DNA from: an uncultured Verrucomicrobiota bacterium
GTDB lineage: Bacteria > Verrucomicrobiota > Verrucomicrobiia > Limisphaerales > AAA164-E04
Length of the DNA: 64,000 bases
Direction: 5' to 3'
Assembly: GCA_902560705.1 (NCBI GenBank)
Contig: CACEMW010000004.1
Span: forward strand, 878-64,877
In this document: positions 11,137 to 32,040 of the stretch, piece by piece
Layout of the letters: each line of letters starts with the position of its first letter
How positions within the stretch are numbered: the stretch's first letter is position 1
Position numbers and translations under genes: made by a program
Notes under the pieces: model-generated
The model's input: only the letters and a program-made list of their open reading frames with translations
Databases searched by the model: none
Told to the model about the DNA's origin: nothing

Positions 11137-11266
11137 ATTAGACTCAAGTTACAAAGATATTTAACAAACGAAAATATGATTTCTGTTTTCCATTGAATCC
11201 TCAAAAACTAGGGGGCTCAATCGGAGATTGTGTTTTATGGCCCACCCTCAAGGAGAGCCTTACCTT

Positions 11267-13439: not shown

Positions 13440-13461
13440 TCTCCCCTAACCACATAACATC

Positions 13462-14835: not shown

Positions 14836-14879
14836 GTGCAAATATTTTGCCCACCAGAATCAAACCTAAACTGAAACTC

Positions 14880-15623: not shown

Positions 15624-15832
15624 GAAGCTTTAAGCAGCACGGGGGAGCAGGCTTAAAACCGCCAGAATTGGGCACTCGTAAGGTACCACGAATGGATATC
15701 CCTACGCAGGGCTGACTATATGAGCATCAACCCCATGGTAAAGGCTCCATGCCAGAATTTAGCTTTCCAAAAGCCCGACTCCAGAGGAATTACTGAGAGG
15801 GAAACCTGAGATTCTGGAGCTCCAGAACACCT

Positions 15833-16525
15833 CTAGAGATTTTGCTTCCAGAGAATCAAGTCATTGGAAAGTTCGTTTTCATCACTTGGCTTTAATGGGT
15901 AATGTTGGCGAAGTTTTTGACCACAAAGGCGAATGCCTTCCACCAGACCGTCTCCAAACTGGTTTGCCCTAAAGCCATCAATGATGGCATTCTTTACCTC
16001 CACAAAATCTTCATTCTTAAAATGCTTATTGATATCGGCATCGCCCATGACGAACACCATGCGCTCGAATGACGAAATAAAGATTATGACGCCTGTGGCA
16101 CCTTGGGTTCTTCCAACCCGATGGATTTGAAAAGCCTGAATTGCTCGTTCTCTGAGGCAGGATTCCATTTCCCTTTGGGAACAGAAAAGACGCCGGATCC
16201 ACCAGACACGACTTGCGAGAAAGGATCCACCGACAAATCCCAAAATAAGTATCAAAAGAATCTCAGACAATCCTAGCTGGAGGCTCGGACCACGCTGGGT
16301 ATGCCATGAGCCGTCCTCTAAAACGTCCTGAAAATTAAACCAGCAAACACTGAGCAGCCCAATGGACAAAACGAAGCCTGCAAGATCCTCCGCACGATTA
16401 TATTGACCACTGCTCTCTGTAAGCACAGGGACGATTTCTGCAGAGGTGTAAGTTTCAGCTTCAGAAACGGCCTCTCGAATGCGTCTCTTATCACTGTCGT
16501 CAAAAAAAGTATCGATATTTTTCAT
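15833..16525 (-). CDS. TPM-domain membrane protein
   Basis: The internal ATG at 16525 lies 4 nt after the upstream stop. Contains IREAVSEAETYTSAEIVPVL, two TM helices and then GATGVIIFISSFERMVFVMGD, a TPM/TLP18.3-like pattern. Confidence 0.55.
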   Translation of the reverse strand: MKNIDTFFDDSDKRRIREAVSEAETYTSAEIVPVLTESSGQYNRAEDLAGFVLSIGLLSVCWFNFQDVLEDGSWHTQRGPSLQLGLSEILLILILGFVGGSFLASRVWWIRRLFCSQREMESCLRERAIQAFQIHRVGRTQGATGVIIFISSFERMVFVMGDADINKHFKNEDFVEVKNAIIDGFRANQFGDGLVEGIRLCGQKLRQHYPLKPSDENELSNDLILWKQNL

Positions 16526-16529
16526 GCTC

Positions 16530-17342
16530 TTACCAGGAACCAGTCGCACCACCGCCACCAGAAAATCCACCACCAAAACTACCACCACCAAATCCATCAC
16601 TGTCACCAGAAGACGTGAGGATGACGTAAAATAGCCATCCAAGAATGGAAAAGACGGCCGTCCAAAATAGCCAAGCCCAACCAGAACTACCACGTCGGAT
16701 AAGCGACACGAAGGTGAAGCCGGCCAGGATGGGTAGCAAAACCATCAGTGCATAATGCCACGAAGGCCTGGGTGGAGCCGTTACGGTCTCTCCCAGAGCC
16801 ATTTGCGCCAAGGCGCGCGTCCCAGCCAGAATTCCCCCTTCGTAATCGCCCGCTTTGAAAAATGGAATGATGTGCTCGCTCATGATCGAGGCACAGAGAG
16901 AATCTTTTGCCCTACCAAACCCGGCACCCAATTCAATACGAGCTTTACGATCATCCACCGCGACCAACAAAAGGATACCCTTATTCCAATCAATATCCTC
17001 TGACCTCCCAACCCCCGCACCCCTGACAGTGACGCGTTGATGACCAATCCCCCACTCATCGTAGAGAATGCGTGCATAGGTCTCGATGGACATGCTGCCA
17101 GCCCCGTAGTCGTGCTGACTACCAATACCCACAACAATGATGGGAATAGCTCTCTCTTTGAGCACCTCTGTAAGTCGCACCTCAAGCTCAGACGCTGAAT
17201 CGGCCGAAAGAAGACTTGCTTCATCCGAAATGAAAGAGTCACCCGAGGGCTTTGGAGGAAAGCGAACCTTCGCCTCTGCAAATTCGGGAAGACCAAATAA
17301 GAAGATAGTCAAGAGGATGAGTTTCAGTAGGAAATGGCCCAT
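16530..17342 (-). CDS. TPM-domain protein, YgcG-like (signal peptide, C-terminal TM and Gly-rich tail)
   Basis: Signal peptide, then ISDEASLLSADSASELEVRL...IPIIVVGIGS and LLLVAVDDRKARIELG. The C-terminal TM helices are followed by GGGSFGGGFSGGGGATGSW. Confidence 0.7.
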   Translation of the reverse strand: MGHFLLKLILLTIFLFGLPEFAEAKVRFPPKPSGDSFISDEASLLSADSASELEVRLTEVLKERAIPIIVVGIGSQHDYGAGSMSIETYARILYDEWGIGHQRVTVRGAGVGRSEDIDWNKGILLLVAVDDRKARIELGAGFGRAKDSLCASIMSEHIIPFFKAGDYEGGILAGTRALAQMALGETVTAPPRPSWHYALMVLLPILAGFTFVSLIRRGSSGWAWLFWTAVFSILGWLFYVILTSSGDSDGFGGGSFGGGFSGGGGATGSW

Positions 17343-17522
17343 GGGAGCGGACAGAGTTTGGGAAAAAAGGATCGTTAACAGAAACCCCTTGATTGTAAAT
17401 TACATAATTCCGATGGCAGTGTAAGCGGTTAAGCAGTCGCGTAATAAACCCCACTTTACCAGCCAACTATAAACACACACCAAAGGTGAACACCGATAGA
17501 AGCGCGGTCTCAGTCAATCGAG

Positions 17523-20500
17523 TTAGTTCTCTTGGGAATCGACTGCCTCCAGTTGATCGAGATACCAAGCCGCCCTCTCATTTAATTTCGCGGCTCCTTC
17601 TGGATCAACCTTAGACAAGTTATCAAGCTTGGCAGCGTATTTTTGAACGATGAACGGGTCCGATGGCCTGAGAACCAAAGCCTGCTCAAGCGCATCTTTG
17701 GTGTTTTGTGTGACAAGAAAATCCAAATACCAATCTTTGCTCAAGTCACTTCCGGGGTGGATTTGGGTAAGGTATCCTTTTTGCCGCCACCTAAACCATT
17801 CATCCAGCTCCTCGCTTTCAAACACAAAAGAGTCGCTCGAAACTCGATCATCTTGTTGCAATATTTTTAATGCATTACTTTGATCTTGATAAACACGGGA
17901 AGTCGATATTGCATATTTTTCCATAGTATCTCGATCACTATTAGCTATCGAAAACTTGCTCCCTATCGGCCACAAAGAAATAGAGTTTTCGGCATAGATG
18001 TTCGCCAAATAGGCAAAGTTTGGATTGGATTTTATTTTCGAATAAAAGAAGTCACCAATTAGAGGCTGCTGAAAGGGGCCATCAACATATCTACCTGTAG
18101 AAAGACTAAATGCGTAAATAGCGCGATCCCGACTAAATGTATAAATCTGATCTGGATCGTGAGGATCAATACCGACTCCTATAGCCCAATCATCGACATT
18201 TAGTGTTTTTACGTTTTCCCCGCTCTTTGTGTCCCATATTTTGGTGGTTTTGTCCCTGGAACCGGTGATTAGATATTTACTGTCAGGAGTAAAGATCATA
18301 TCCATAACCCCACTAAAGTGGGAAAGCTCATGGAGCAATTCGCCAGTTTCTACGTCCCACACCATTGGCTTAAGTGCATCAGTGCCTATCCCAGTTGAAG
18401 TTGCAAACATTTTGCCGTCAGGCGAAAAGCAGATCGGAGATTTAAAAAAGAACCCATACTTCAGAGGGTCGTATTTCAAAGCCTTAGAGCGAACATCGAA
18501 AATTCGCGCACGACCATCTTGGCAAGCTGTAAGTATATGGTCATCATCAAAGCTAAATTCTAAATTAATTATCATACCCTTGTGAGAAGAGGACTCGAAG
18601 GATTTTTCATACTTGTTTCCGCGTAACTTTAAAACCGTGAAGTTGAAAGTATATCTATTCACGAACGCTATATGCTGTGAATCAGGTGACATTTTAATCA
18701 CATTGGTAAAATCTGGAAGATCCCCCTCAAATAATACTTCGAGATTATCAGAATCGTAAACATGCCACTTCCGAAAGTTCCCAAGGCCCTTTCCTTCTGC
18801 GACAAACAATTTTTTTCCTTCATCTACAAACATAGAGACTCTGGCTTCATCGGAGAGTTTAACTTTGCTGATGAGACGAATATCAGACAATGCCCACAAC
18901 TTAATTTCTCCATCCTTGGACACGGATACTAATTTTTGGCCATCCGGACTCAAATCAAAATCGAGTATTTGATTATCATGCGTGAGTAGGATGGGTTCAA
19001 TATTTGGGCTTTCCGTTTCAAACTCAAAAATCTTACCTTCTTTGTTCAAAACTCGGATACGCTTACCGTCCCTAGAAAATGATATTGCTCCAGGGTCAGA
19101 CCCTATGTTTGTAGGGCTATTAAGCAATTTACCATTATTCAAGTCCCAAACCCACAAATCATTGTGATCGGTTGCGCTTACTAACTTCATCATGTCTGGG
19201 CTGAAAACTGAGTGCCATGGGCCTCCATCGTGTGTGAGAGGCTGAATGGTCTCTTTCCCTGACTTTAAATCCCAAATTCTAACTGTCTGGTCAATAGACG
19301 GAGTGGCCAGTAGCCTACTGTCAGGGCTGATGCTTGCGTCCACAACAATACGAAAATGAGCACGTGATTCCTCCCACAAAAGCGTACCCATTTTTGCGTC
19401 AAAAACTTCCAAAGCACCTTGGATAGGGCTTCCCCCGTAGGATACTAGATACTTACTGTCAGGAGAATATTTACAGTAAACATGATTCCTCATATCACCG
19501 TCGGGTGTAGCGTAAATATTCTTAATTTCCAGACTGTAGACATTAATTTGATATAACTTGAAATAGGAGCCCTCCTCATTTTCTACTATTGCAATATTGC
19601 TACCGTCAGAGCTGATCCTTATATCGGCCACGCGACTATCAAGCTTATATTTCTTTAAGATTTTATTGTTGAAATCGAATATAAGCACCTCCCCCATGTT
19701 GGTGCCGACGCATATCAACCCCTTTGTTACCGCGAAACCAGTAATAAAATTATCAACTTCAATGCGCATTATACCATCAAAGGCTTCCAAACCTATAATG
19801 TCAGCCACGTTCGAGCCATTTAGATCGATGGCTGCAACGATCAAAAACTTAGAATCACTGCTGAACCTCAGCCCTTCAATTTGCTTGTATTTTTCGCTCT
19901 CGAAAACTGTTTGCCGGTTTTCCGTATCCACTATCTTGAAGAATGAATTATCGGTTTCATCATGCGCTGCTGCGTAATAAGTCAAATCAGGAGAACATTG
20001 TGATCCAAGAAACCACCTTACTTTAGCCTCAGAACCCAATTCAAAAATTTTGCCTCCATAATTCAGAAAAGGGCTATGGTCTAAAGTTGATTTTAATTTT
20101 TGGGAAAAGTAATCGATGTTAGGATTCTTACCACTTTCTGCAGCCATGTAAGCGAGCGCCTTCTGCGGGAGTCGCTCCATTGACATCTTATCGGCACTTT
20201 CAGCAACGGAATAACTGAGATTATTTTGGGCCTGTTTCTTGGCTGTGTCGGCTTCAAAAGCCATAAAAACAGCAACGCAGGCCAAAACAAAAAGCACTAG
20301 GGCAAATACTTTATTTCTTTTTGCCGATCTTTTTTGGATTTCCGCTCTCTGTTTTTCCGCATTTGCCAAGGCTCTGGCCTGTTCCAATTCTCGCTTGCGC
20401 GCCTCCTCCTTGGCTCGCTGCTCGGCCTCAAAGTCTTGCTTGGACTCATCAAGAAACCGCATTGCCAAGTCGAACGAATCATTGATTCGTGCCCCCCAGT

Positions 20501-21827
20501 TTCCATTGGGTTTGTTCTTTTCCCTCCAGGAAAGGGCAATTTTCAGGTCTGGATCCCGATAAAAACCAGCCTCCCCTAAACTATGAAGTTCAGCTGTTTC
20601 ACATAGACGAATGTAAATGCGTGCTGAGTCTGCTTCCTCATTGACCCACTGCTTGAGCCGGACCCATACGCGCATCAAACTTTCATGCGATATGTCAATG
20701 ATGACATGGTCATTAATTTTGACCGTTTCACCCGGCATGATAAAGGTTCGCCCGGTAGGTCGATAAGCATCAATGACGGTAAGCATTTTTTCACGCTCAT
20801 GCCCGGTAATCTCCTCTATCTCCCCAAAGGGCAGTGGTCGCCGAATCCCACGCCCATCAGCTTGTTTTTCGGTGATTGCCTTGAACAACTTCATGCATAG
20901 CAGGCGGTGTTGATCATGCGGAAGCGCTTGGTAAACTTCATCCGCATGTCGCGAAAGAGCTTCAGCCATACGCCCAATGGCATCGTAGTGCTCAAGGTCC
21001 ATGGGCACTGATTTATCCGTGTGCCCTTCCCAATAATCCCACATACGCATCAGTGCATGCTGCAATATGGGGAGCTGATCTGGATCATCCCCGATATCGT
21101 TGAGCAATTGTTGCTTTAGACGAGGCGATATTTCGCCACCCCCAACTTTGACCGGGCCTTCGATGGCTCGCGCCCGTTGTTTGCGATTAAGCCTTGGTAT
21201 GAGGTATTCCCCCTCGTTGACCGCCTCAGCCAAGCCCTTGAACTCCGCGCAATCTCCCAAAAAGTCGGATCGCATCGTGAGAATGATGAAGATGGGCACT
21301 TCAGATTGACGGGTAGTTTCCAGCAAAAGCTGAATAAAATGGGCCGCTTCTTGGCTCGCCTTGCTGCCACTTTGACGGAATCGGAAAATCTCCTCAAACT
21401 GATCCACCAAAAGCAGTAGATTGGCACCTTTTTCTATGGCTGATTGACGATACGCTTCAATCAAACCAAGGCCACTCCGACTTAACGTTGCGCGGGTTTG
21501 CAAAACATTCTCCTCATTCTCATCACCGAATAAACCCGATTCAACCAGGGAATCGGCCAAATTGGTCAAAGGGTCTCCACCTGGCCGCATGATGGCAAGC
21601 TCCCAGGCAATGGAGGTGCTGGTCATGGTCCCTCCATGGAGTTCGGGCAGCAACCCCGCCCGAACAAGAGAGGATTTCCCACTCCCTGAAGCACCCACTA
21701 CGGCTAGAAAACGAGTATTACCCAAACGCTGCAACAATTGTGAAACTTGTTCTTCCCGGCCAAAGAAAAGAAAATTCTCATCGAATTGAAATGGGCGCAG
21801 ACCGGGGAATGGATTACCGTCAAACAT
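17523..21827 (-). CDS. STAND-type P-loop NTPase with coiled coil, single TM helix and ~900-aa WD40-like repeat region (cassette A)
   Basis: 1434 aa. NTPase motifs: NPFPGLRPFQFDENFLFFGREEQ, Walker A GASGSGKSS (21672..21695), LLLLVDQFEE and TMRSDFLG. Coiled coil EAEQRAKEEARKRELEQARALANAEKQRAE. Hydrophobic span VFALVLFVLACVAVFMAF (20256..20309). Many blades follow (DQTVRIWDLKSGK, SKDGEIKLWAL, CQDGRARIFDV, SRDKTTKIWDTKSGE). Confidence 0.85.
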   Translation of the reverse strand: MFDGNPFPGLRPFQFDENFLFFGREEQVSQLLQRLGNTRFLAVVGASGSGKSSLVRAGLLPELHGGTMTSTSIAWELAIMRPGGDPLTNLADSLVESGLFGDENEENVLQTRATLSRSGLGLIEAYRQSAIEKGANLLLLVDQFEEIFRFRQSGSKASQEAAHFIQLLLETTRQSEVPIFIILTMRSDFLGDCAEFKGLAEAVNEGEYLIPRLNRKQRARAIEGPVKVGGGEISPRLKQQLLNDIGDDPDQLPILQHALMRMWDYWEGHTDKSVPMDLEHYDAIGRMAEALSRHADEVYQALPHDQHRLLCMKLFKAITEKQADGRGIRRPLPFGEIEEITGHEREKMLTVIDAYRPTGRTFIMPGETVKINDHVIIDISHESLMRVWVRLKQWVNEEADSARIYIRLCETAELHSLGEAGFYRDPDLKIALSWREKNKPNGNWGARINDSFDLAMRFLDESKQDFEAEQRAKEEARKRELEQARALANAEKQRAEIQKRSAKRNKVFALVLFVLACVAVFMAFEADTAKKQAQNNLSYSVAESADKMSMERLPQKALAYMAAESGKNPNIDYFSQKLKSTLDHSPFLNYGGKIFELGSEAKVRWFLGSQCSPDLTYYAAAHDETDNSFFKIVDTENRQTVFESEKYKQIEGLRFSSDSKFLIVAAIDLNGSNVADIIGLEAFDGIMRIEVDNFITGFAVTKGLICVGTNMGEVLIFDFNNKILKKYKLDSRVADIRISSDGSNIAIVENEEGSYFKLYQINVYSLEIKNIYATPDGDMRNHVYCKYSPDSKYLVSYGGSPIQGALEVFDAKMGTLLWEESRAHFRIVVDASISPDSRLLATPSIDQTVRIWDLKSGKETIQPLTHDGGPWHSVFSPDMMKLVSATDHNDLWVWDLNNGKLLNSPTNIGSDPGAISFSRDGKRIRVLNKEGKIFEFETESPNIEPILLTHDNQILDFDLSPDGQKLVSVSKDGEIKLWALSDIRLISKVKLSDEARVSMFVDEGKKLFVAEGKGLGNFRKWHVYDSDNLEVLFEGDLPDFTNVIKMSPDSQHIAFVNRYTFNFTVLKLRGNKYEKSFESSSHKGMIINLEFSFDDDHILTACQDGRARIFDVRSKALKYDPLKYGFFFKSPICFSPDGKMFATSTGIGTDALKPMVWDVETGELLHELSHFSGVMDMIFTPDSKYLITGSRDKTTKIWDTKSGENVKTLNVDDWAIGVGIDPHDPDQIYTFSRDRAIYAFSLSTGRYVDGPFQQPLIGDFFYSKIKSNPNFAYLANIYAENSISLWPIGSKFSIANSDRDTMEKYAISTSRVYQDQSNALKILQQDDRVSSDSFVFESEELDEWFRWRQKGYLTQIHPGSDLSKDWYLDFLVTQNTKDALEQALVLRPSDPFIVQKYAAKLDNLSKVDPEGAAKLNERAAWYLDQLEAVDSQEN

Positions 21828-21839
21828 GGTATTGATGGA

Positions 21840-23324
21840 TTATTGCTTGATTTGGGTGACGAATGGTTCGAGGGCGCTGAAGTCATTGCCGGGAATTTGA
21901 ATGATGTCAGCCAAATGAGAACGAAACCTCTCTTTGTGTCTACTTTCAGGAGGAGCCACAAGAATCGAAGTAGCTGTGATGGGTTTGGACCGCCCAAACC
22001 CAGAGGCTTTGATGAGGTTATTGAGTTTCATATTTACCCACTGTCGTGTGGCAGAACCAAAATAAATAAGGACCCCATCACAAATGCGGAGGTTTTCTAT
22101 GTGGGCCTCAGAAACCTCTGTTTCGCTTCCACTGAATAAGGGGATTACGACCTCCAACCCTTGATCAAAAAGGTAATCCTCGATGGCTTCGATCTTATCC
22201 TCGTCATCTGGTGGTGCCATCAAGTAGACCGTCGGCGGGCCTGCATCAGCACCATGATTCAACCCCTTATCGACCTTGTTCTTTTCTTCAGTAAAGTGAT
22301 CGATGACCAAGCCCTTAAATATTTCGAATGTCCCTTCAACAAAGTCCGTTTTCTCGTAGGTAGCAGGATTCACACGCAAGCCTTCAATGAACTTGGCTTG
22401 CCGTTCTTCCTTTGCCTCCAAACCTGACGGTAGCCAGATCAGTCGTTCAAGGCCGCGATTGGCTGACTCATCTGCTGCAAGACTCAACTGGGTCTCTATG
22501 ATAGACTCCGACCCAGCCTCAGGGATCATACCATAGTTTGCACCCAGTAAATGAATGGCCACATCCGCGTGTTTGAGATACTCCCGCACTTGTTCTTTGA
22601 CCTCAAGAGCATTCAATGGAAGATGGCTGTCCGGGAGAATCATGTACCCACGTTCACGAAGATCTCGCGCAATGTTGTCACGATCAGCACTTCGATCCCC
22701 TGAAACAGTAGCCAGGTAGACGGTCTTGCCGAGAGAAACTCTCAGCGCCTCAGGATTTGAAGGGGGAGTGCTACCTGCTCGCGATTTCTTTAAAATCTCG
22801 CAGATTTCGTATGCGAGATCATAGATCCGGCTGAAGTAATTCTGCTTGGCTTCCTTTCCGAAGGCTTCGTTATATTCCACAATTTTGCCATTTTCGTCGA
22901 AATCGTAGAAATTGAACCCAAGAACACTGCCGAAAATTTTCTGCAGTTCTGGCTGAAGTTCTTCGGCATCATAGGGCGTCTTAACGACCTTGAGAATGCG
23001 GGACTTCCCATCAAAGGCGACACCCCCGTTTACTTCCGCGCTTTGGTAAAATTGGGTGATTTCCTTCACGCACCACTCAGACTTGATGTAGCGGGGGCTG
23101 AGAATGGAAACCATGAGTTTGGTATGGTCAAACTGACTAAGAATTTTCTGGTCGAAAATATCATTGCCGGTGAGTTTCTGATCACGCCACACGCGTGGCT
23201 GCTCCCCCATAAGCTGAGCAAGGCGATTTTCCAAAATACGGTGAAACTCCGTAATCCAACCTTTCTCATCATCAGAGATCGAGAGATTGTCGATATGAGC
23301 GTAACTGATGAATAGATCATTCAT
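21840..23324 (-). CDS. TIR-domain protein with two further Rossmann-like (DUF4062/TIR-like) modules (cassette A)
   Basis: Start taken at MNDLFISYAHIDN (23324) by analogy with the paralogue. The TIR block is ILSPRYIKSEWCVKEI. Module 2 is TVYLATVSGDRSADR...HLLGANYGMIPE. Module 3 is TVYLMAPPDDEDKIEAIEDYLFDQGLEVVIP...DGVLIYFG. The gene ends 12 nt before the STAND start. Confidence 0.8.
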   Translation of the reverse strand: MNDLFISYAHIDNLSISDDEKGWITEFHRILENRLAQLMGEQPRVWRDQKLTGNDIFDQKILSQFDHTKLMVSILSPRYIKSEWCVKEITQFYQSAEVNGGVAFDGKSRILKVVKTPYDAEELQPELQKIFGSVLGFNFYDFDENGKIVEYNEAFGKEAKQNYFSRIYDLAYEICEILKKSRAGSTPPSNPEALRVSLGKTVYLATVSGDRSADRDNIARDLRERGYMILPDSHLPLNALEVKEQVREYLKHADVAIHLLGANYGMIPEAGSESIIETQLSLAADESANRGLERLIWLPSGLEAKEERQAKFIEGLRVNPATYEKTDFVEGTFEIFKGLVIDHFTEEKNKVDKGLNHGADAGPPTVYLMAPPDDEDKIEAIEDYLFDQGLEVVIPLFSGSETEVSEAHIENLRICDGVLIYFGSATRQWVNMKLNNLIKASGFGRSKPITATSILVAPPESRHKERFRSHLADIIQIPGNDFSALEPFVTQIKQ

Positions 23325-23815
23325 GAAAACAAAAGCACAACCTAGCGATGAATTATCTCCATCAGATCCGCCATGAAAAAGTCTTTTTTTTGTGAAAAAG
23401 TTCATGTGGAACCGCTACCCCTCTGGCACAGCTACCTTTTTTTGGCGGTATGGGAAGACGAGATGCGTGTGTTTCACATGCAGCGTTGGAAGGATTATGC
23501 CTATTGCACCCATTGCGATCGTTCTCTTCAAGAGGAAGAATGCCGTCTGAAAATCACTTATGGAGCCGGAAACAGGATCACCAAAACCTATTGCAATTAC
23601 TGTGAGAAGAGAGCCATTCGCAATCCTAAAGGTTCATCTAAAAGCTATGTCAGGAAACAACGCTGAAACAAGTTGTATACCCTTAATAAAACTTTCTTTT
23701 GAATACAATTTTTAGTTTTGAAAAGGCAAAACGGTTCTTCTAACTTTTGAAAGATACGTCTTTCTGGCAGATCACATTAATATAACCAGGAATACTCAAC
23801 TCTCCCCGAATCCGC
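23325..23815. promoter_or_regulatory. divergent control region between the two TIR-STAND cassettes
   Basis: A 491-bp gap between head-to-head TIR genes, AT-rich at 23667..23815. No promoter motifs were confidently identified. Confidence 0.35.
23463..23666 (+). CDS. small zinc-ribbon protein (67 aa), hypothetical
   Basis: MRVFHMQRWKDYAYCTHCDRS...(26)...CNYCEKRAIRNPKGSSKSYVRKQR has two CxxC pairs and a basic tail. It is the internal start of ORF 23373..23666. There is no homology evidence, so the coding status is uncertain. Confidence 0.3.
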   Translation: MRVFHMQRWKDYAYCTHCDRSLQEEECRLKITYGAGNRITKTYCNYCEKRAIRNPKGSSKSYVRKQR

Positions 23816-25318
23816 ATGAACGATATATTCATCAGTTACGCTCACATGGACGATCAAGTCCTGGATGAAGACCAAAAGGGTTGGATCACCAAATTTCATC
23901 GGGTCTTGCGTGTTAAATTGGGCCAGCTCATGGGTGAACCCGCCAAAATATGGCGCGATGAAAAACTCTCAGGCACTGACGTCTACGACGACAAGATCGT
24001 CAGCGAATTCAAGAAGGCCAAGGTCATGATCTCCGTCCTCAGCCCCCGCTACATCAAGTCGGAATGGTGCAATCGCGAGCTGAACGAATTTTATGAAGCA
24101 GCCGAAAATGAGTCCGGAATCCGTGTGGGAGAAAAATCACGGCTTATCAAGGTGGTCAAGACGCCCTTTGATAACGACCAGGCAGCAGAGCATCTCCCCA
24201 AGATTTTTGAAGCTATCTTGGGGTTTGATTTTTTTGAGCAGGACCCCGAGTCCGGTCGTATTGTCGAATTCGACGAGGCATTTGGGGTGAAGGCCAAGCA
24301 GAATTACTATTCGCGTATCTATGACCTTGCTTCTGAAATCGCCGATATTCTCAAGCACATGGAGGGTGGTTCCTCGAGCACTCCACAGACCGAGCCTCTG
24401 GCCAAAACAGGTAAGACGGTCTATCTGGCGGCGGTGACCTCCGACATTCAAACGGGACGGGAAAAACTTCTCCGAGAACTGACCGATCGCGGTCACCGTG
24501 TATTGCCTGACCGCCCCCTCCCCAACGCGGGTCAGGAATTAATGGAAGCCATTGGTAACCTGTTGAGGCAGTCCGACTGCTCCATTCACATGGTGGGTCA
24601 GAAGTATGGTATGATCCCTGAAGACAGCGCGCACTCCATCGCAAAATTACAGAATGATCTAGCCACGGAACGCATTGAGAACCATCCCGAATTTCATCGT
24701 TTCATCTGGATGCCGCAAGCCGTCTTGACCGATGATGACCGCCAGCGCCAATTTATTACCGAATTAAGGGAAGACCCACGTGCCCATACCGGTGCCGATT
24801 TGTTGGAAGATTCCCTCGATCATTTTCGAGACTATGTGGTGGAAAAGCTCAAGCCCAAACCCAAATCGAAAACACTCTCAAGCCTGACAAGCTCCGACAT
24901 TGAGGCAAGTGGCAACTCTGCCGTTTATCTGATCTACGATATGAAGGATGACGAGGTTGTTGCCCCTCTTGAAGATTACCTTTTCGACCAAGGTTTGGAG
25001 GTCATGTTGCCTACGTTCGATGGTGAGGAGGCTGACATCAAGCGAGCCCACATTGAAAAGATGATCCACTGCGACGCCGTCCTGATCTATTACGGACAGG
25101 CCGACCGATCGTGGGTCGACATGAAACTGATGAATCTGATGAAGGCACCGGGGTATGGCAAGGAAAGCCCTTTCAAGGCACAAACCGTGTATTTGGCTCC
25201 TCCCATGGATCGGCGCAAGCAGCGTTACCGCACCCACTCAGCGGAAGTGGTTGTCCAGGAAAGTGAGGCCTTTGAACCCTCGCTCCTGGATTCCTTCGTT
25301 TCCACCCTCAAGTCCTAA
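23816..25318 (+). CDS. TIR-domain protein with two further Rossmann-like (DUF4062/TIR-like) modules (cassette B)
   Basis: Contains MNDIFISYAHMDD and VLSPRYIKSEWCNRELNEF (candidate catalytic Glu at 24077..24079). Module 2 spans about 24410..24715 (TVYLAAVTSD...HMVGQKYGMIPE). Module 3 spans about 24917..25150 (AVYLIYDMKDDEVVAPLEDYLFDQGLEVMLP...DAVLIYYG). Confidence 0.85.
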   Translation: MNDIFISYAHMDDQVLDEDQKGWITKFHRVLRVKLGQLMGEPAKIWRDEKLSGTDVYDDKIVSEFKKAKVMISVLSPRYIKSEWCNRELNEFYEAAENESGIRVGEKSRLIKVVKTPFDNDQAAEHLPKIFEAILGFDFFEQDPESGRIVEFDEAFGVKAKQNYYSRIYDLASEIADILKHMEGGSSSTPQTEPLAKTGKTVYLAAVTSDIQTGREKLLRELTDRGHRVLPDRPLPNAGQELMEAIGNLLRQSDCSIHMVGQKYGMIPEDSAHSIAKLQNDLATERIENHPEFHRFIWMPQAVLTDDDRQRQFITELREDPRAHTGADLLEDSLDHFRDYVVEKLKPKPKSKTLSSLTSSDIEASGNSAVYLIYDMKDDEVVAPLEDYLFDQGLEVMLPTFDGEEADIKRAHIEKMIHCDAVLIYYGQADRSWVDMKLMNLMKAPGYGKESPFKAQTVYLAPPMDRRKQRYRTHSAEVVVQESEAFEPSLLDSFVSTLKS

Positions 25319-25344
25319 TTTGTTAAACTCATTTTCTTTCGACC

Positions 25345-27831
25345 ATGCCAGCTCAAGCTCACAATCCATTCCCAGGCCTGCGACCTTTTGAATTCGACGA
25401 CAACCCGCACTTCTTTGGCCGCGATGAACAAACCACCGAACTGACCACTCGGCTGAGGAAAAATCGTTTCGTGGCAGTGGTCGGAACCTCAGGCAGCGGA
25501 AAGTCCTCCCTGGTACGTGCCGGCCTGCTCCCTGAGTTACTCAGTGGAACCATGTCCGGTGCCGGTTCCAGCTGGGAAACGACCATCATGCGCCCCGGCG
25601 GAGATCCCTTGACCAATTTGGCGCAGAGCATGGTCGATGCTGACTTATATGATCCTGATGAAGAAGACATCGCCGCTCAAGTAAGAGCTACTTTGACCCG
25701 CAGTGGGCTGGGACTGGTCGAAGCCATTCGCCAGAGCGATCTTTCTCAAGGGACCAACTTTCTTCTAGTCGTCGATCAATTTGAGGAAATCTTTCGATTT
25801 CGACGTAGCGAGGATGCCACTGACGAGCAGGCAGCCTTTTTTGTCAACCTGCTGCTGGAGGCCAGTGCGCAAAGCGATTTACCACTCTATGTCATTATCA
25901 CGATGCGGTCCGATTTCCTGGGAGAGTGCAGTCAATTTCCACGGTTGGCAGACACCGTCAATGAGGGCGAGTTTCTCATCCCACGCCTGAATCGGGATCA
26001 ACGTAAGGAAGCCATCCTGGGGCCGGTCAAAGTCGCGGGAGGCAGCATGACGGATCGTCTGCTCTTGCGCCTGCTCAATGATATCGGAGACGATCCCGAT
26101 CAGCTCCCCATTCTCCAACACGCCCTCATGCGTACTTGGGACCTGTTCGCCGCGCATCATGAAACGGGAGATCTCGACCTGGAGCACTACCATGCCACCG
26201 GAGGGATGAATGAGGCCCTCAGTCGACATGCTGATGAGGTATATGGAGACCTACCGGATCCAGAGCACCAGCGCATTGCACAAAAGTTATTCAAGTCGCT
26301 AACCGAAAAGGTTGATGCTAACCGAGGCATACGTCGGCCCATGGCGTTGAAGGAATTGCAAGAGATCTGCGGAGGGGAAGAAGTGCACCTGCGATCGGTC
26401 GTCGATGCCTTCCGGAGGACAGGATGCACCTTTCTCATGCCAGCCGGAGAGGCAGAGATCACACTGAAAACCATCATCGATATCTCCCATGAAAGCCTGA
26501 TGCGGGTGTGGAAAACGTTGAAAGACTGGGTCGATAATGAGGCCCAATCTGCCAAAATCTACCGCCGACTGGCCGACACTGCCAGTCTCTACGCAGATGA
26601 CAAGGCTGGCTTGTATCGCGACCCGGATCTGGGGATTGCCCTGGCATGGCGGCAAGAAAACCAACCCAACCAGACCTGGGCGGACCGGTATTACCCAGGT
26701 TTCCCGGAGGCCATGGCGTTTCTGGAAGCCTCTCAGACAGAAGCTCAACGGGAGGCCAGGGAAAAGGAAGAAGCCCGCAAACGTGAACTAGCACAGGCGA
26801 AAGCACTGGCTGAGGCAGAAAGGGAAAAGGCCGAATCTGAACGACGGGCTGCCATTAAACTGAAACGCCTAATTGCCGGGCTCACAATAGCTATGGGAAT
26901 CGCAATCCTGAGCACGATAATGGCATTCTCGGCCATGAAGAGAGCGAAAGCTAGTGAGGAAAAAGCAATTTTGTCTTTGGTGAGCAGCCAAGAATTATCA
27001 GTTGATGATGTCCGCAAAGCGCTGAATATCATCCATCGAGACGGTCTCGATTTCAAAATGCTATTAACTTCATTGCGACAGAAGGCTTGGGCTTATTACA
27101 CAAGTGGAAATTTAGTTTCTGCAAATGTTGCGATGGAAGCAGCAACCGAGATCAGCCCTAACCATAAAGATTCCCAATTATTACTAGGCTTAATAAAAGC
27201 TAAAAAAGGAGACATAAGCGACTGCCTTGATAAAATAGAACTCTTTACAAACTTGGAAGCAGAGAACCCAAGTAATGATGGATGGGCGACGATTCGTTGG
27301 ATGAAAGGAGCTGCAGTGTTGGGAGTAATTGGAGACGCAGAGATCCAAAAGCAATACTGCGAAACGATGTTCAAGGCATTGCCAGTTCCAGATGATATAA
27401 TTGGTGAACGATGCGCGAAAGCTGCTTTAATATTAAAAGTGCCGGATAATCTTTACCATAAAGCCTATGACTATGCTTTGGTCGCAAACGAAGAAAGGGA
27501 GGGCTCTGATTCCTCGGGTTTGGTGGCATGGAACAGGTGTACAATGGGACTGGCTAGTCTTAGGCTAAACAAGTTAACCGAAGCCTCAAGATGGTTGGAT
27601 AAATCCATGGATGCCATGAGTGGTAACAATCTTTTGGTTCGGGGCCTTAATGTAGCCATACGCGCTCTCGTGGAACTTAAGATGGGGAACATTTTGGAGT
27701 CAAAGCAAACCTTAGACAGTGCGAAAGAAATCTACAACAATATAGATAAGAGCCATGGCGGCTGGCACGATGTACTTTTTGTGGACCTACTAATATCTGA
27801 AGCTGAAGATTTAATCCAAAAACAAAATTAA
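25345..27831 (+). CDS. STAND-type P-loop NTPase with coiled coil, single TM helix and helical (TPR-like) C-terminal region (cassette B)
   Basis: 828 aa. NTPase motifs: NPFPGLRPFEFDDNPHFFGRDEQ, Walker A GTSGSGKSS (25483..25506), LLVVDQFEE and TMRSDFLG. Coiled coil REAREKEEARKRELAQAKALAEAEREKAE. Hydrophobic span LIAGLTIAMGIAILSTIMAFS (26869..26931). About 300 aa of helix-rich repeats follow. Confidence 0.85.
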   Translation: MPAQAHNPFPGLRPFEFDDNPHFFGRDEQTTELTTRLRKNRFVAVVGTSGSGKSSLVRAGLLPELLSGTMSGAGSSWETTIMRPGGDPLTNLAQSMVDADLYDPDEEDIAAQVRATLTRSGLGLVEAIRQSDLSQGTNFLLVVDQFEEIFRFRRSEDATDEQAAFFVNLLLEASAQSDLPLYVIITMRSDFLGECSQFPRLADTVNEGEFLIPRLNRDQRKEAILGPVKVAGGSMTDRLLLRLLNDIGDDPDQLPILQHALMRTWDLFAAHHETGDLDLEHYHATGGMNEALSRHADEVYGDLPDPEHQRIAQKLFKSLTEKVDANRGIRRPMALKELQEICGGEEVHLRSVVDAFRRTGCTFLMPAGEAEITLKTIIDISHESLMRVWKTLKDWVDNEAQSAKIYRRLADTASLYADDKAGLYRDPDLGIALAWRQENQPNQTWADRYYPGFPEAMAFLEASQTEAQREAREKEEARKRELAQAKALAEAEREKAESERRAAIKLKRLIAGLTIAMGIAILSTIMAFSAMKRAKASEEKAILSLVSSQELSVDDVRKALNIIHRDGLDFKMLLTSLRQKAWAYYTSGNLVSANVAMEAATEISPNHKDSQLLLGLIKAKKGDISDCLDKIELFTNLEAENPSNDGWATIRWMKGAAVLGVIGDAEIQKQYCETMFKALPVPDDIIGERCAKAALILKVPDNLYHKAYDYALVANEEREGSDSSGLVAWNRCTMGLASLRLNKLTEASRWLDKSMDAMSGNNLLVRGLNVAIRALVELKMGNILESKQTLDSAKEIYNNIDKSHGGWHDVLFVDLLISEAEDLIQKQN

Positions 27832-27955: not shown

Positions 27956-29374
27956 CTAAACCCCGCCCAGAGCCCCGGTGCTGTCGGCAAAGGCGTCGGT
28001 TTCCACGCCCAGGCGATGCAGCATGGAGACGAAAAGGTTGGAGAGAGGCACATCCTCCTGCTGGGCTTTTTGAGTCCAGGGTTCCTTGTCTCCGGGTTTC
28101 CATCCGCCTCGGTAGGCTTTGGCACCGGCATGATTGAGGTAATATCCATGGGACACACCCAGACTTTGGCCCCCCGCTAGAATTAGAGGATAGTTGCGTG
28201 AAAGGTGGAAGGCGCTGGAGGCGGATCCAAAAAGCACCAGACTGTGATCCAGCAGGGCCCCCTGCCCTCCGGGCTCAGGCGTGTTTTTCAGCCGTTGAAT
28301 GAAGCGGGCCAGCTCTTCATGCAGAAATTGGCAGTAGAGGGCGAAATTCTTCCAGCCATCGGGCTGCTTGGTTTCATGGGAGAGCTGGTGGGCGGCAGGA
28401 AAACCGATCGCCTGTGAGAGTCGATCACTGATCCCCACCCCGTTCTCACGTCCAATTTGATAAGTCGCCACACGCGTCGAATCGGTCTGAAAGGCCAGAG
28501 AAATCAACTCGAACATATTCCGTAGATAGGCTCTTGGTTGATCAGGAGAAACTTCCAGATCGAGGTGATCCCTTTGGACTGAAGGCAAGGGGGTGTTCAT
28601 CCACTGCCTGGCCTTCTGCACCCGAAGCTCTGCTTCACGCACCGACTGCAAGTATTCTTCCAGACGGGCCTGGTCACCTGATGGGAGCCTTGACCTGAGC
28701 TGCCGGGCGTCTTCCAGCAGGTCATCCAGAGCGCTCTGGCTGTGGGCCAGTTGCTGGGCCGCCTGCGCACTGTTCTTGACAAAGAGCCCGTCAAAGATGC
28801 GCTTAGGGCGATTCTCCGCAGGAATGGCTCGCCCCTGCCGATTGAAGGACAGGGTGTGTGCCCCCCGTGCCGTCCCCGTGCCGCCTTCCGTCGACAGGAC
28901 CAGTGAGGCGTGCCGGGTTTGGTCACCCACCTTCTCGGCGTAGAGTTGATCCAAGGAGAGCGTGTTCTGGTAGTCCATATCCCCCGTGCCCGTCGCCGCT
29001 CCAGTCAGGAACATATCGGCGTTGTTGTGGCCATGCACGTTGCGACCGGCTGTATGCGACAGCCCGGAAAGAATGGTGAAGTCCTCACGGAGGGCTTCCA
29101 GGGGCTTCATGCACTGGGTCAAGGCGTAGTCCCTGCCCTGCCCGTGAGGGAACCAGGCCCAGTCTTGATGGGCTGGATCATCGGGGCGCGGCATGGGCAC
29201 CCCATCCGGGAAGTAAAAACAGGCCAGCCTCCGGGGTGGCTGGGCGTTGCCCTGCCCCAAGGTTTTCACTCCAGAGAAGGATTCAAAAAGTGGAAGGGCC
29301 AATGCCCAGCCAGTGCCGCGAAGAAATCGACGGCGATCCAAGCGGTTCCAGGGAATATGAAAGGAGGCGTTCAT
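27956..29374 (-). CDS. DUF1552-family protein with Tat-type signal
   Basis: Contains DRRRFLRGTGWALALPLFESF, DSTRVATYQ, HQLSHE and YPLILAGG. The start overlaps the upstream stop (ATGA). Confidence 0.8.
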   Translation of the reverse strand: MNASFHIPWNRLDRRRFLRGTGWALALPLFESFSGVKTLGQGNAQPPRRLACFYFPDGVPMPRPDDPAHQDWAWFPHGQGRDYALTQCMKPLEALREDFTILSGLSHTAGRNVHGHNNADMFLTGAATGTGDMDYQNTLSLDQLYAEKVGDQTRHASLVLSTEGGTGTARGAHTLSFNRQGRAIPAENRPKRIFDGLFVKNSAQAAQQLAHSQSALDDLLEDARQLRSRLPSGDQARLEEYLQSVREAELRVQKARQWMNTPLPSVQRDHLDLEVSPDQPRAYLRNMFELISLAFQTDSTRVATYQIGRENGVGISDRLSQAIGFPAAHQLSHETKQPDGWKNFALYCQFLHEELARFIQRLKNTPEPGGQGALLDHSLVLFGSASSAFHLSRNYPLILAGGQSLGVSHGYYLNHAGAKAYRGGWKPGDKEPWTQKAQQEDVPLSNLFVSMLHRLGVETDAFADSTGALGGV

Positions 29375-32040
29375 GGTGATAAAAAGAGTTCACTGGTTCC
29401 AATCAGCTGGATCAGCGAGGCCAGCCCGTCTCCTTGCTGACGGACTTGAGAGGCGATCGCTTCGACGGCTGCATGATCGGAAAAGTGCAAGGGTCGACCT
29501 AGGGCATAGACGCATAACTTGTAGGTCATCGCCAGCACAAACTGATCTTGACGCTCCTTTAACAGGAAGCGCTTGAGACCGTCCATGCCCTCCAGAGGCT
29601 GGTCGTTGAATAGATGGCTGGTGGCATCCACCGGTTTGCCTTCGATGTCATCGCGCCATCGCCCAAAGGCGTCAAAGTTTTCAAAGGCAATACCCCACGG
29701 ATCAATCTTTGCGTGACAGGACATGCAGGCCTCTTGATTGCGATGATCGGCCAGACGCTCCTTGAGGGTCATGCGGGCGATCTCCGGATCGGCCAGATCA
29801 ATTTCAGGAACCGTAGGGGGCGGAGGCGGAGGCGGATCATTCAACAGGTTTTTCAGCATCCAGATCCCGCGTTTAAGGGGATGTGAATCTTCCCCACTGG
29901 CATTCATAGCCAGAAAACCGGCTTGGGTCAGGATGCCTCCTCGCTTTGAATCACCCTTGAGCGCCACTGGGCGAAAATCATTTCCATGCACATCAGGTAT
30001 CCCGTAATGCCGGGCGAGACGCTCGTTGACCAGGGTGTGATCGGCGTGGATGAAGTCGAGCAGGCTGGCATTGGATCGAAGGCTTTGGTCAAAGAACAGG
30101 ACAGGTTCTTTCTGCATTGCTTCCTTGAGCGCCTGATCCATCACGGCATTGGGTTTGAGGAAATCCAACAACTCCATGCCCAACCATTGAGGAACAAAGC
30201 GTTCTGCAAGCCGGTGAGATCTTGGATCAGCCAGCATGCGCTCGATCTGCGTCACAAGGACCTCTGATGAACTGAGCTCCCCTTGCTGAGCCAACTCAAG
30301 CAACGGTTGATCCGGCAGACTACTCCACAGAAACATGGCAAGTCGTGTAGCCAACGCCTCGTGGGTCAGCCGATGAGCCACCAAATAGCCATTCGGCTCC
30401 TTGGTGGGGACTGTTTGCGCGCTCAAATACAGAAAGTTGGGAGAGGACAGAACAGTCGCCAGCACTTCGACCACTGCCTCTTCCAGCCCAGAAGTCGTGG
30501 GTCGAACCGCTTCATACAAGGCAAGCTTGCGATCCAGCTCTGCATCGGAAATCGCCCGCCGCCACATCTTCGGCATCCAGTGCTCCAGCAAATGCCTGAC
30601 GTAGACGGCTTCCTCCTTGAACTCGTCGCTGTCGAAAAAAACGCGCTGGTGCGAAGCTGGTGGCCACTCGGCTTGGTAAGGAGCGATGATTTCCACGTAA
30701 TCGATCTGAATATCGCCCTGAGACACCGAGCTATTGACCAGGCGAATGTGTTCAGACGGGCTGGGCGTGCCTCCCATGGGAGAGATCTTGCGCACATTGT
30801 TACGAGGATAAATGTCGCCCAGTGGAATATCCCATTGGTAAAACTCTGGAGCCTCAGGCGGGGCGTCGACGGGAAGATCGCGCTCACTGACGCGCATCAA
30901 GGCACGTCCTTCATTGCTGGCCTGCCAGCCAAAATGAAGCTGCAGACTGGGGATGGTCGCCTCTTCCTGCGAGGTTCTGGAAGCCCGCACCCGCACCCGC
31001 ATCAGCCCCTCATCGGGGAGTTGGTCTCCCAGCTCCACCACCAGTTTGTGATGCCCCCCAGGGGGCAGGATGGCGACTGTATCCGAAACCTCGGGAAGTT
31101 CCGGCGGATTCTCGGTTGGAGCAAAGGCGTATTTGGCGCCTCCGTAACTCCAAGTATGACGGGCAGTTCTTTCACTGGAGCGGTTGTAGTAGTAAACCCC
31201 AACGTGAGACGCCTTCAATTCAGTCAACTTTTGTTCGAGCTTTTGCTCAAGAGCCTGCGGATCGTCCTGATGGGCTTCTCTTAGTTTCTCAAGGGCCTCT
31301 TCCTGCTCTTTCCAAAGGGTTCGACTAGCCTGTTGCATGGAGACCCCCCAGTAAAGAGTCGGTGGCCTGGTCCCCAAAGCGGTGGCACGCTTGAGAGCCT
31401 GGCGAGCCAGTTGACGGTAGCTTTCCAGTTGGCTCACCGACATGTGCAAATGCTCCACGCTATTTTTGAAACCATCCTCTGAGCGGGCCTCAGGAGGCAA
31501 ATCTCGGCCAAATTGCCAAGGTAGCCCCAGAAGGTCCTGCAGGGCGTAATTGTATTCATAGGCGGTCATGCGCCTGAAGGAGGATGGATTCTGATCGGAA
31601 CGCCGAAGCATCGAGGCAGTTCGAATCTCACCGGAAAGCCATTCCATGACCTGTGCGCGATCGCCCTGCGTCAAGGCCGATTCTTCCGGAGGGGGCATCT
31701 CGCCGTTGCCAAGGACCGCTCGCACCTCTACCCACCAATCCACATCTGAGCCTTCGTGCAGGTTCGGATCGAGCTGATCGATACGGAGGCGTGCCTTGGT
31801 TTTTTCAGGACCATGACAAGGCACGCAGTGCTGTTTAAGAATGGGGGCAATAGCCTGATCAAAGGATTGGAGCTTCGGCTTCGGGCGCTGGTTTGCCAAT
31901 GACTCCCTCGTCCGAAGCCTAAGTAGAGAGTCACGAGCCCCTTCAAGCTTGAGCTCGTTCAACGCGGACACATGGGTTGCCGCGCTGAGTGAGCCTAGGC
32001 TAACCAGCAAACACAAGATACCATATCGCATCCAAGACAT
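29371..32040 (-). CDS. secreted DUF1587/DUF1592/DUF1595/DUF1588/DUF1585-family protein with an N-terminal CXXCH
   Basis: The ATG at 32040 gives signal peptide MSWMRYGILCLLVSLGSLSAA. Motifs: CVPCHGPEK, RRMTAYEYNYALQDLLGL, GILTQAGFLAMNASGEDSHPLKRGIWMLKNLL and CMSCHAKIDPWGIAFENFDAFGRWRD. Confidence 0.8.
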   Translation of the reverse strand: MSWMRYGILCLLVSLGSLSAATHVSALNELKLEGARDSLLRLRTRESLANQRPKPKLQSFDQAIAPILKQHCVPCHGPEKTKARLRIDQLDPNLHEGSDVDWWVEVRAVLGNGEMPPPEESALTQGDRAQVMEWLSGEIRTASMLRRSDQNPSSFRRMTAYEYNYALQDLLGLPWQFGRDLPPEARSEDGFKNSVEHLHMSVSQLESYRQLARQALKRATALGTRPPTLYWGVSMQQASRTLWKEQEEALEKLREAHQDDPQALEQKLEQKLTELKASHVGVYYYNRSSERTARHTWSYGGAKYAFAPTENPPELPEVSDTVAILPPGGHHKLVVELGDQLPDEGLMRVRVRASRTSQEEATIPSLQLHFGWQASNEGRALMRVSERDLPVDAPPEAPEFYQWDIPLGDIYPRNNVRKISPMGGTPSPSEHIRLVNSSVSQGDIQIDYVEIIAPYQAEWPPASHQRVFFDSDEFKEEAVYVRHLLEHWMPKMWRRAISDAELDRKLALYEAVRPTTSGLEEAVVEVLATVLSSPNFLYLSAQTVPTKEPNGYLVAHRLTHEALATRLAMFLWSSLPDQPLLELAQQGELSSSEVLVTQIERMLADPRSHRLAERFVPQWLGMELLDFLKPNAVMDQALKEAMQKEPVLFFDQSLRSNASLLDFIHADHTLVNERLARHYGIPDVHGNDFRPVALKGDSKRGGILTQAGFLAMNASGEDSHPLKRGIWMLKNLLNDPPPPPPPTVPEIDLADPEIARMTLKERLADHRNQEACMSCHAKIDPWGIAFENFDAFGRWRDDIEGKPVDATSHLFNDQPLEGMDGLKRFLLKERQDQFVLAMTYKLCVYALGRPLHFSDHAAVEAIASQVRQQGDGLASLIQLIGTSELFLSP

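Follow-up and report, generated by a model that had tools for sequence, protein, structure and literature searches.

We describe a pair of adjacent genes, one encoding a TIR-domain protein and the other a STAND NTPase with a predicted transmembrane (TM) helix, that occurs twice, back to back, within a 64,000-nt stretch of DNA (the window; contig CACEMW010000004.1 of GenBank assembly GCA_902560705.1, positions 878 to 64,877 of the forward strand) from an uncultured Verrucomicrobiota bacterium of the Limisphaerales. The locus had been singled out in a sequence-only reading as a candidate novel conflict or defence system, and is here followed up with profile searches, structure models, and comparison of related loci. 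STAND/TIR conflict systems are a kind already known; what appears to be new, judging from the genes, is a widespread and unnamed pair in which a triple-TIR protein is encoded in trans and the NTPase carries a TM helix.

Two TIR-STAND gene pairs at one locus

The minus-strand pair (cassette A) consists of TIR-A (21840..23324, 494 aa) and, 12 nt downstream, STAND-A (17523..21827, 1434 aa), and the plus-strand pair (cassette B) of TIR-B (23816..25318, 500 aa) and, 26 nt downstream, STAND-B (25345..27831, 828 aa). These coordinates, strands, and gaps, as first read, agree with the open reading frame (ORF) list, and every motif quoted in the sequence-only reading is found in the four translations. 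The TIR-A ORF can be extended to 23405, yet the MNDLF start agrees with every homologue. Both TIR proteins are triple TIR-fold proteins and align end to end at 45% identity (E 2e-162). Both STAND proteins comprise an nSTAND1 NTPase, a coiled coil, and a TM helix, followed by WD40 propellers and a helical tail in STAND-A and by a helical (TPR-like) sensor in STAND-B. They share 53% identity across ~590 aa (E 0.0), or 59% for the first 500 aa, so the earlier by-eye estimate of 65-75% for the NTPases was too high, its sole numerical error. Pairwise alignment agrees with that reading in that similarity spans the coiled coil and hydrophobic helix and ends after them, the C-termini being unrelated.

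An NTPase and a variable domain on opposite sides of a predicted membrane helix

The nSTAND-type resemblance of the NTPases put forward in the sequence-only reading proved right, as both are Pfam nSTAND1 (PF20703), matched in STAND-A at E 9.8e-93 (residues 6-413; 312 bits; model positions 1-369 of 379) and in STAND-B at E 1.6e-99 (residues 8-419; 335 bits; model positions 1-374) against a gathering cut-off of 27.1. The STAND-A module lies at 20589..21812 on the minus strand. Walker motifs are intact in both proteins, with Walker A reading GASGSGKSS in STAND-A (Lys codon 21675-21677, minus strand) and GTSGSGKSS in STAND-B (Lys codon 25501-25503, plus strand), and Walker B reading LLLLVDQFEE and FLLVVDQFEE, respectively. 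Solved-structure relatives of nSTAND1, sought by sequence, yielded P-loop matches only.

Each STAND protein has one hydrophobic 19-mer peak (Kyte-Doolittle 2.7 in STAND-A and 2.2 in STAND-B). In STAND-A, it falls at residues 506-526 (20250..20312, minus strand; KVFALVLFVLACVAVFMAF, with KRSAKRNK just before it) and in STAND-B at residues 509-529 (26869..26931, plus strand). Beyond the helix, the fast-evolving sensor of STAND-A (17526..20249, minus strand) contains WD40 families at residues ~650-1250 and that of STAND-B (26932..27828, plus strand) is helical with weak TPR matches only, such that Pfam bears out the WD40-like and helical C-termini first described. A single hydrophobic helix after the NTPase, at about residue 500, is present in 63 of the 65 partner proteins with a complete NTPase, which makes the helix between NTPase and sensor, originally noted in the two window proteins, a feature of the family. 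The post-helix domain is a WD40 propeller in ~32 of 42 proteins and mostly short and helical in the rest.

The flanks of this helix differ in charge, with a mean of 5.9 Lys and Arg residues on the N-terminal side versus 2.6 on the C-terminal side and a bias in that direction in 57 of 62 proteins (p=4e-11). Because this bias follows the positive-inside rule, the NTPase is predicted to be cytoplasmic and the variable domain to lie outside the cytoplasm. Such an outward sensor was missed in the sequence-only reading and would be unlike Avs or bNACHT. Characterised bacterial STAND/NLR-like sensors (Avs, bNACHT) are cytoplasmic and detect phage proteins after entry. Were the pair an intracellular phage sensor of that type, its helix a mere tether and its repeats cytoplasmic, the order of NTPase then repeats and the STAND/TIR logic would be as in Avs and TIR-NLR proteins, and WD40 and TPR sensors are indeed known from cytoplasmic bacterial STANDs (PMC13581612). 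However, a single spanning helix puts its flanks on opposite sides, an NTPase that depends on ATP has to be in the cytoplasm, as the charge bias also indicates; further, one allele carries a DUF1080 domain, which is reported only from the periplasmic side of TM kinases of the Planctomycetota-Verrucomicrobiota-Chlamydiota (PVC) bacteria (PMC11032199), and neither PADLOC nor Pfam gave a match to an Avs or NACHT model. We consider the cytoplasmic reading distinctly improbable.

One active-type TIR and two degenerate modules in the partner protein

Profile searches placed a TIR_2 domain at residues 4-100 of the TIR proteins (52.8 bits in TIR-A and 67.1 bits in TIR-B, the latter at E 2.6e-18, versus a Pfam cut-off of 28) and a DUF4062 domain (PF13271) at residues 202-280 (25.9 and 29.0 bits versus a gathering cut-off of 24.7). 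An AlphaFold2 (AF2) model made from a 20-sequence alignment contains three consecutive five-stranded beta-alpha, flavodoxin-like (beta-alpha-beta) units. The whole chain, when searched with Foldseek, matched only through its TIR module, with the RUN1, SNC1, AbTir, TLR, and SARM1 TIRs on top. Module 3 modelled alone reached a predicted local distance difference test score (pLDDT) of 91.7 and matched nucleoside 2-deoxyribosyltransferases (NDT), DNPH1, RRS1/RPS4 TIR, and SARM1 TIR at TM-scores of 0.6-0.66. Hence, the "three Rossmann-like modules" of the sequence-only reading hold up, and Pfam, AF2, and Foldseek together identify them as TIR/NDT-superfamily modules.

TIR NADase activity requires a catalytic Glu and oligomeric assembly. 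In TIR-B (all plus strand), module 1 (23816..24370) is a canonical TIR with catalytic Glu E88 (codon 24077-24079), module 2 (24407..24850) is DUF4062/NIR-like with Q279 at the catalytic Glu position (codon 24650-24652), and module 3 (24911..25315) has a TIR/NDT fold with K437 at the equivalent helix position (codon 25124-25126); the corresponding minus-strand codons of TIR-A are 23061-23063 (E88), 22488-22490 (Q279), and 22026-22028 (K433). E88 aligns with E88 of RPS4 in an SxWCxxEL motif and, together with the surrounding SxWCxxE, occurs without exception in the 195 family members aligned, so that the catalytic Glu, without which the proposal of an active TIR would have failed, is present. 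For module 2, a profile match to the KpSwz structure (10wc_A) allowed residues to be equated. The catalytic Glu of KpSwz is E97, which corresponds to E83 (SYTEKEF) in plasmid orthologues without a 14-residue N-terminal extension, and hhalign (probability 95.7%) places Q279, itself invariant (195/195), on this residue. The same E-to-Q change in characterised DUF4062/NIR proteins abolishes NADase activity and defence (bioRxiv 2026.09.04.749371, 2026.05.01.722283). Because its catalytic Glu is replaced by an invariant Gln, module 2 is predicted to lack NADase activity. The module 3 Lys is found in 190 of 193 members, and its placement is less secure than that of the Gln because the helix register was read by eye and the hhalign match is weak. 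The absence of the catalytic Glu from modules 2 and 3 had escaped the sequence-only reading, and the protein would best be described as one active-type TIR plus two degenerate TIR-fold modules.

This loss in two of the three modules is what would be expected if the triple-TIR protein were a non-enzymatic, MyD88-type adaptor or scaffold with the output generated elsewhere, and the kinase, cyclase, and peptidase domains appended to it in many relatives (below) would likewise fit a constant adaptor. Against this, the Glu and SxWCxxE motif of module 1 do not vary, and most members, including both window copies, are without any other enzymatic domain; a pure adaptor therefore strikes us as improbable.

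Exchange of the sensor among close relatives

Four contigs are ~92-93% identical to the window at the DNA level, with TIR-B proteins that are identical among themselves and 96% identical to the window's. Their STAND proteins depart from STAND-B at the helix. The one at locus L084 (826 aa) matches STAND-B at 92-100% identity per 50-residue window to residue 500 and at 24-36% beyond residue 550, and the one at L083 (1644 aa) matches at 92% to residue 552 and is unrelated beyond, its post-helix part consisting of a 3-keto-disaccharide-hydrolase/DUF1080 domain and ankyrin repeats. By blastn, DNA similarity of these relatives to the window ends at 26873-26885, inside the helix-coding segment, and for L083 restarts at 27956, with the next gene. 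The same holds at greater range, as STAND proteins with long WD40 tails at L002 and L003 have NTPases 84% identical to that of STAND-B, the STAND-B sensor is matched by L021 only, and STAND-A orthologues retain 82-91% identity before the helix and 20-46% after it. In both window STAND proteins, the sensor-coding part has a GC content of ~42% (41.6% in STAND-A and 42.4% in STAND-B; GC at third codon positions 0.42) versus 50-55% in the NTPase parts.

The sensor thus evolves separately as an exchangeable cassette, being replaced or diverging much more quickly than the remainder of the gene. The sensor swap proposed in the sequence-only reading, for which this is the strongest support, is real, and takes place between alleles and orthologues, even between strains; its proposed route, local duplication, did not stand (below). 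Tandem repeats indicative of recent blade amplification were sought in the WD40 sensor of STAND-A, and none were found.

A conserved pair in at least eight phyla

The TIR family comprises 1453 clusters (90% identity) at E<=1e-5, or 2235 clusters at E<=1e-40 with a Flavobacteriaceae member as seed, and 1127 representatives (50% identity) at E<=1e-30. In GTDB species genomes, 201 relatives were confirmed, and 80 loci from these were kept. Taxonomically, these belong to Verrucomicrobiota, Acidobacteriota, Bacteroidota, Cyanobacteria, Spirochaetota/Leptonemataceae, Deferribacteres, Chloroflexota, and Pseudomonadota, which puts the number of phyla with the module at eight or more, and the closest relatives carry the annotation Limisphaerales or Pedosphaera. 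Among the 71 loci with space for a downstream gene, 70 have nSTAND1 there in the same orientation (median gap 18 nt), the lone exception (L043) having unrelated genes downstream of the TIR gene; the upstream, trans-encoded effector seen in the window is therefore part of a conserved adjacency. Identities of TIR and NTPase to the window proteins also co-vary (r=0.95). Several copies may share a genome, with four loci in metagenome-assembled genome SP274 and three in NIOZ-UU28.

Many relatives extend the triple-TIR unit N-terminally. Ten such additions were scanned, giving six Ser/Thr kinases (P0241, P0243, P0246, P0247, P0278, P0283), one cyclic nucleotide monophosphate (cNMP) cyclase (P0245), one trypsin-like peptidase (P0370), one set of leucine-rich repeats (P0343), and an extra DUF4062 stretch (P0226). 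In the kinase, trypsin, and cyclase fusions checked, nSTAND1 is still the next gene. NTP-dependent conflict systems have been described with this design, in which different enzymes are attached to an unchanging core (PMC7159879, PMC8195603).

Other genes adjoin the pair at some loci. Upstream at L087 lie a further TIR gene and one for a MoxR-like AAA protein. A membrane protein with an NAD-binding TrkA_N domain is adjacent in ~25 loci (L009:16443-18131 and ~24 in Bacteroidota, e.g., L045:125-2065), with an RyR domain detected in the L009 copy only; cyclic ADP-ribose is the classical ryanodine-receptor messenger in animals. A DUF4231/SLATT two-helix protein adjoins the TIR gene in five loci (L034:8342-8899, L053:3071-3499, L069:645-1073, L048:9127-9765, and L038:822-1364). 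SLATT proteins are predicted nucleotide-signal-gated pore effectors, and their linkage hints that the TIR may act as a signal generator. In seven Bacteroidota loci (L042, L050, L054, L066, L067, L071, L075; e.g., L054:2091-19788), the pair is embedded in a tight same-strand array, in the order contractile injection system (CIS) tape-measure gene (PF19268), AAA ATPase, TrkA_N protein, the pair, a TonB-plug-like protein (877 aa), and an MFS-like protein (847 aa), which suggests a possible link of the receptor module to extracellular CIS (eCIS) loci. No TrkA_N/RyR, SLATT, or CIS-type partner is found inside the window.

Such linked genes, together with the fusions, bear on whether the pair might be a general outside-in signalling receptor that is not immune at all, sensing environmental, prey, or kin cues, as has been proposed for the expanded PVC single-pass kinases, and using the TIR to make a nucleotide second messenger that controls physiology. 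The single-pass layout and the sensor repertoire (WD40, TPR, DUF1080) are as in PVC TM kinases, the TIR unit is often fused to a Ser/Thr kinase or cNMP cyclase, the linked TrkA_N-RyR and SLATT proteins could read a nucleotide signal, and no defence genes lie in the chromosomal context of the window. On the other hand, allelic replacement of the sensor, presence/absence polymorphism (below), and multiple copies with varied sensors mark conflict or recognition loci rather than housekeeping sensors, elsewhere STAND and TIR come together in immunity or cell death, and the trypsin-type fusions and the MoxR neighbourhood of L087 match the effector set of conflict systems (PMC7159879, PMC8195603). 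On balance, we regard a non-immune signalling role as unlikely, though a serious contender.

The head-to-head layout is incidental

The start codons of TIR-A and TIR-B are 491 bp apart, and the sequence-only reading took the two cassettes for a local inverted duplication with swapped sensors around one bidirectional control region co-regulating both. The divergent layout is what such a history would leave, and a 41-nt inverted repeat does run across both TIR 5' ends, though it is merely the homologous coding sequence of MND(L/I)FISYAH. Each cassette, however, is far closer to orthologues elsewhere (82-91% for STAND-A and 84% for STAND-B) than to its neighbour (59%, NTPase). Further, L083 and L084 (~93% DNA identity) align to window positions 8363-15634 and then from 23434 onward, so that they keep the region upstream of TIR-B and have ~80 bp in place of a 7.8-kb segment (15635..23433) that holds STAND-A, TIR-A, and two TPM-domain genes. 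This segment is a presence/absence polymorphism among close relatives, because L085 still has the 5' end of TIR-A. No divergent pair was found among the 80 related loci, the nearest arrangement being a distant tandem pair at L079, and promoter-like and terminator-like matches are at chance level, leaving no signal of a shared control region. With cassette A missing from close relatives, no other divergent pair, and promoter scans at chance, the divergent layout is incidental, and the cassettes are independent family members back to back; local duplication with shared control, already contradicted, is very improbable.

Several neighbouring features were considered and set aside. The boundaries of the 7.8-kb indel have no target-site duplication or terminal repeats that would mark a mobile element. 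The TPM-domain genes (overlapping ORFs at 15833..16693 and 16530..17342, minus strand) share the segment with cassette A, yet occur at no related locus and were rejected as parts of the system. A small ORF upstream of TIR-B (23463..23666, plus strand; 67 aa, two CxxC pairs) is a doubtful gene, called in L084; it was rejected as a conserved third gene, being found in four close relatives only, and its 73-79% aa identity there, versus ~93% DNA identity nearby, implies that it is probably without strong protein constraint. DUF1592 (PSD/PSCyt) and DUF1552 pairs flank the locus in mirror orientation (11193-15623 and 27956-32139). At 32% identity only, they are ordinary PVC paralogue families and not the arms of a larger inverted duplication. 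Farther out, window positions 1-8000 have a GC content of 36-39% versus ~52% in the rest and encode a Tll0287-like protein, a pyridine-nucleotide-disulphide oxidoreductase with a BFD-like [2Fe-2S] domain, and a multihaem cytochrome; this part may be a foreign segment.

Relation to known systems

Neither PADLOC (2023 models, v2) nor NCBIfam gave the pair a named system, with sub-threshold matches only, and no description of it was found in open-access full text, though one may exist elsewhere; the novelty expected in the sequence-only reading held in this respect. Among candidate homes, Thoeris, which joins a ThsB TIR protein to a ThsA effector (SIR2 or Macro/TM with SLOG), was rejected given weak ThsB matches and no ThsA-like gene in the window, and Avs/bNACHT given no model match, an effector in a separate gene, and the TM helix. 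In the EACC1 two-gene system, a small EACC1-domain protein with one TM segment is encoded 5' of a caspase or cyclase gene (PMC7159879), and the pair has no EACC1-like small TM protein and no caspase. The FxSxx-COOH TIR-like family FxsC (NF040588) scored 50 and 54 bits versus a cut-off of 130. The eCIS TIR toxin EAT15 (WP_034246516.1, 327 aa), examined since Bacteroidota relatives sit downstream of CIS genes, is unrelated beyond generic TIR similarity.

The nSTAND1 clade takes its definition from STAND-FGS lectin systems, in which the NTPase has effectors or effector-associated domains fused at its N-terminus (Kaur, Iyer, Burroughs, Aravind, eLife 2021, PMC8195603). These counter-invader systems resemble the pair in NTPase clade, a C-terminal ligand-binding domain, and diversified copies per genome, and resemble the wider family in their TIR, kinase, trypsin, and cyclase-type effectors. 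As described, their effector or effector-associated domain is fused N-terminally and their FGS/C-type-lectin sensor is often diversified by diversity-generating retroelements (DGRs), whereas the pair has no N-terminal domain, a separate triple-TIR protein, a TM helix, and WD40, TPR-like, or DUF1080 sensors; neither a separate triple-TIR gene nor a TM helix with nSTAND1 is described in the sections of that paper cited here. Plant TNLs (RPP1, ROQ1), Avs, TIR-NLR, and bNACHT proteins are alike in that an oligomerised NTPase is expected to assemble TIRs into an NADase and the C-terminal repeat sensor varies, but they are single cytoplasmic polypeptides for intracellular ligands, and the pair is two genes, membrane-spanning, with a sensor predicted to face outward. 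Module 2 is a homologue of the DUF4062 domain in the DUF4062/NIR NADase systems (Swarozyc, PsAvs2, Vulcan, Vesta, and Evangelion; 2026 preprints), which need their catalytic Glu (E97, E108, E98, E103), in contrast to the Gln found here amid two TIR-fold modules.

Membrane receptors provide further comparisons. Single-pass Ser/Thr kinases of PVC bacteria and Planctomycetota have WD40, TPR, FGE, or DUF1080 domains predicted to be periplasmic (PMC11032199) and share with the pair their lineage, sensor repertoire, and layout of cytoplasmic enzyme, TM helix, and outer repeats; the cytoplasmic transducer here is a STAND NTPase with a TIR partner and not a kinase, although some relatives fuse a kinase to the TIR. 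Animal Toll-like receptors likewise have an outer repeat sensor, one TM helix, and cytoplasmic TIR output. Here the TIR is separate and an NTPase oligomerisation module lies between, making this analogy and not membership. In the account of the cyanobacterial WRAP operon given in PMC9218822 (Dunin-Horkawicz et al. 2014), genes for TIR-bearing and STAND-WD40 proteins are coupled and propellers turn over fast, as in the pair, but there a second STAND ATPase bears the TIR, with no TM helix reported, and recently amplified blades are not seen here. Finally, in-silico work has pointed to STAND proteins targeted by DGRs whose C-type-lectin domains are predicted to be periplasmic, so a STAND sensor that faces outward has a precedent as a prediction; these DGR targets were the only periplasmic sensor domains on STAND proteins that we found in the literature, all of them in-silico predictions. 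A 2026 phylogenomic survey of defence STANDs, in the portion cited here, makes no mention of membrane-spanning forms or trans-encoded TIRs.

A candidate membrane-spanning receptor

Because the sensor, predicted to face outward, is replaced even between close strains, the pair resembles an immune or signalling receptor that senses the outside. We favour, by somewhat better than an even chance, the reading that it is a membrane-spanning STAND conflict or immune receptor, as yet unnamed, that fires a trans-encoded TIR NADase, and its most likely role is that of a conflict or immune receptor against envelope-level threats. A role in conflict is favoured by strain-level sensor replacement, presence/absence polymorphism, multiple copies with different sensors, the STAND plus TIR pairing, and the conflict-type fused effectors.

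The mechanism we propose draws on what is established for STAND and TIR proteins (plant TNL resistosomes, Avs, SARM1). A ligand would bind the outer domain, and autoinhibition would be relieved across the membrane via the coiled coil and helix. The cytoplasmic NTPase modules would then exchange nucleotide and oligomerise at the inner membrane face, and the oligomer would recruit or reorder the triple-TIR protein such that module 1 TIRs form composite active sites and cleave NAD+. The degenerate modules 2 and 3, with their Gln and Lys, would probably serve in docking, as a pseudo-oligomer, or as a non-cleaving ligand- or nucleotide-binding scaffold rather than as enzymes. As no downstream effector gene is linked in the window, the output there is likely either NAD+ depletion that arrests growth or kills the cell or a diffusible ADP-ribose-derived signal.

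We acknowledge that several points weigh against the conflict-receptor reading. First, the pair is known here from its genes and from models: the topology is a prediction from hydropathy and charge bias, the full-length AF2 model has a predicted template modelling score (pTM) of 0.40, indicating low confidence in how the modules are arranged, and no interaction surface between TIR and nSTAND1 was identified. The STAND protein also has no N-terminal adaptor domain, the NTPase coming first. Second, the links to immunity are indirect. PADLOC returned weak ThsB (E 2e-5 to 6e-4) and PDC-S66 matches only; the window is an ordinary PVC-type chromosome (DUF1592/DUF1552, DUF1559, DUF1501/PSD1, isocitrate dehydrogenase) with no defence island; no relatives were found on viral contigs (IMG/VR), so there is no direct phage link; and the sensor repertoire is identical to the one in PVC signalling kinases and just as compatible with a non-immune sensory role.

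Implications

A broader form of the conflict-receptor reading, which we hold more tentatively and would put at less than an even chance, is that TM STAND receptors with hypervariable ectodomains, across phyla, fire a TIR NADase that has a degenerate-module scaffold and mediate envelope immunity or allorecognition before the cytoplasm is breached. By analogy, such a family would in effect combine, in prokaryotes, the topology of Toll-like receptors with the oligomerisation logic of NLRs. If so, STAND/TIR immunity would extend to extracytoplasmic surveillance by a conserved, abundant module, the pair would offer a natural system for an NTPase switch driven across a membrane, and DUF4062/NIR and TIR domains would have been turned non-catalytic beside an active TIR. 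The strain-level replacement of the sensor would serve as a ready-made map of the specificity determinant. Should the role prove non-immune, the pair would still amount to a novel way of signalling through TIR proteins among PVC and Bacteroidota bacteria.

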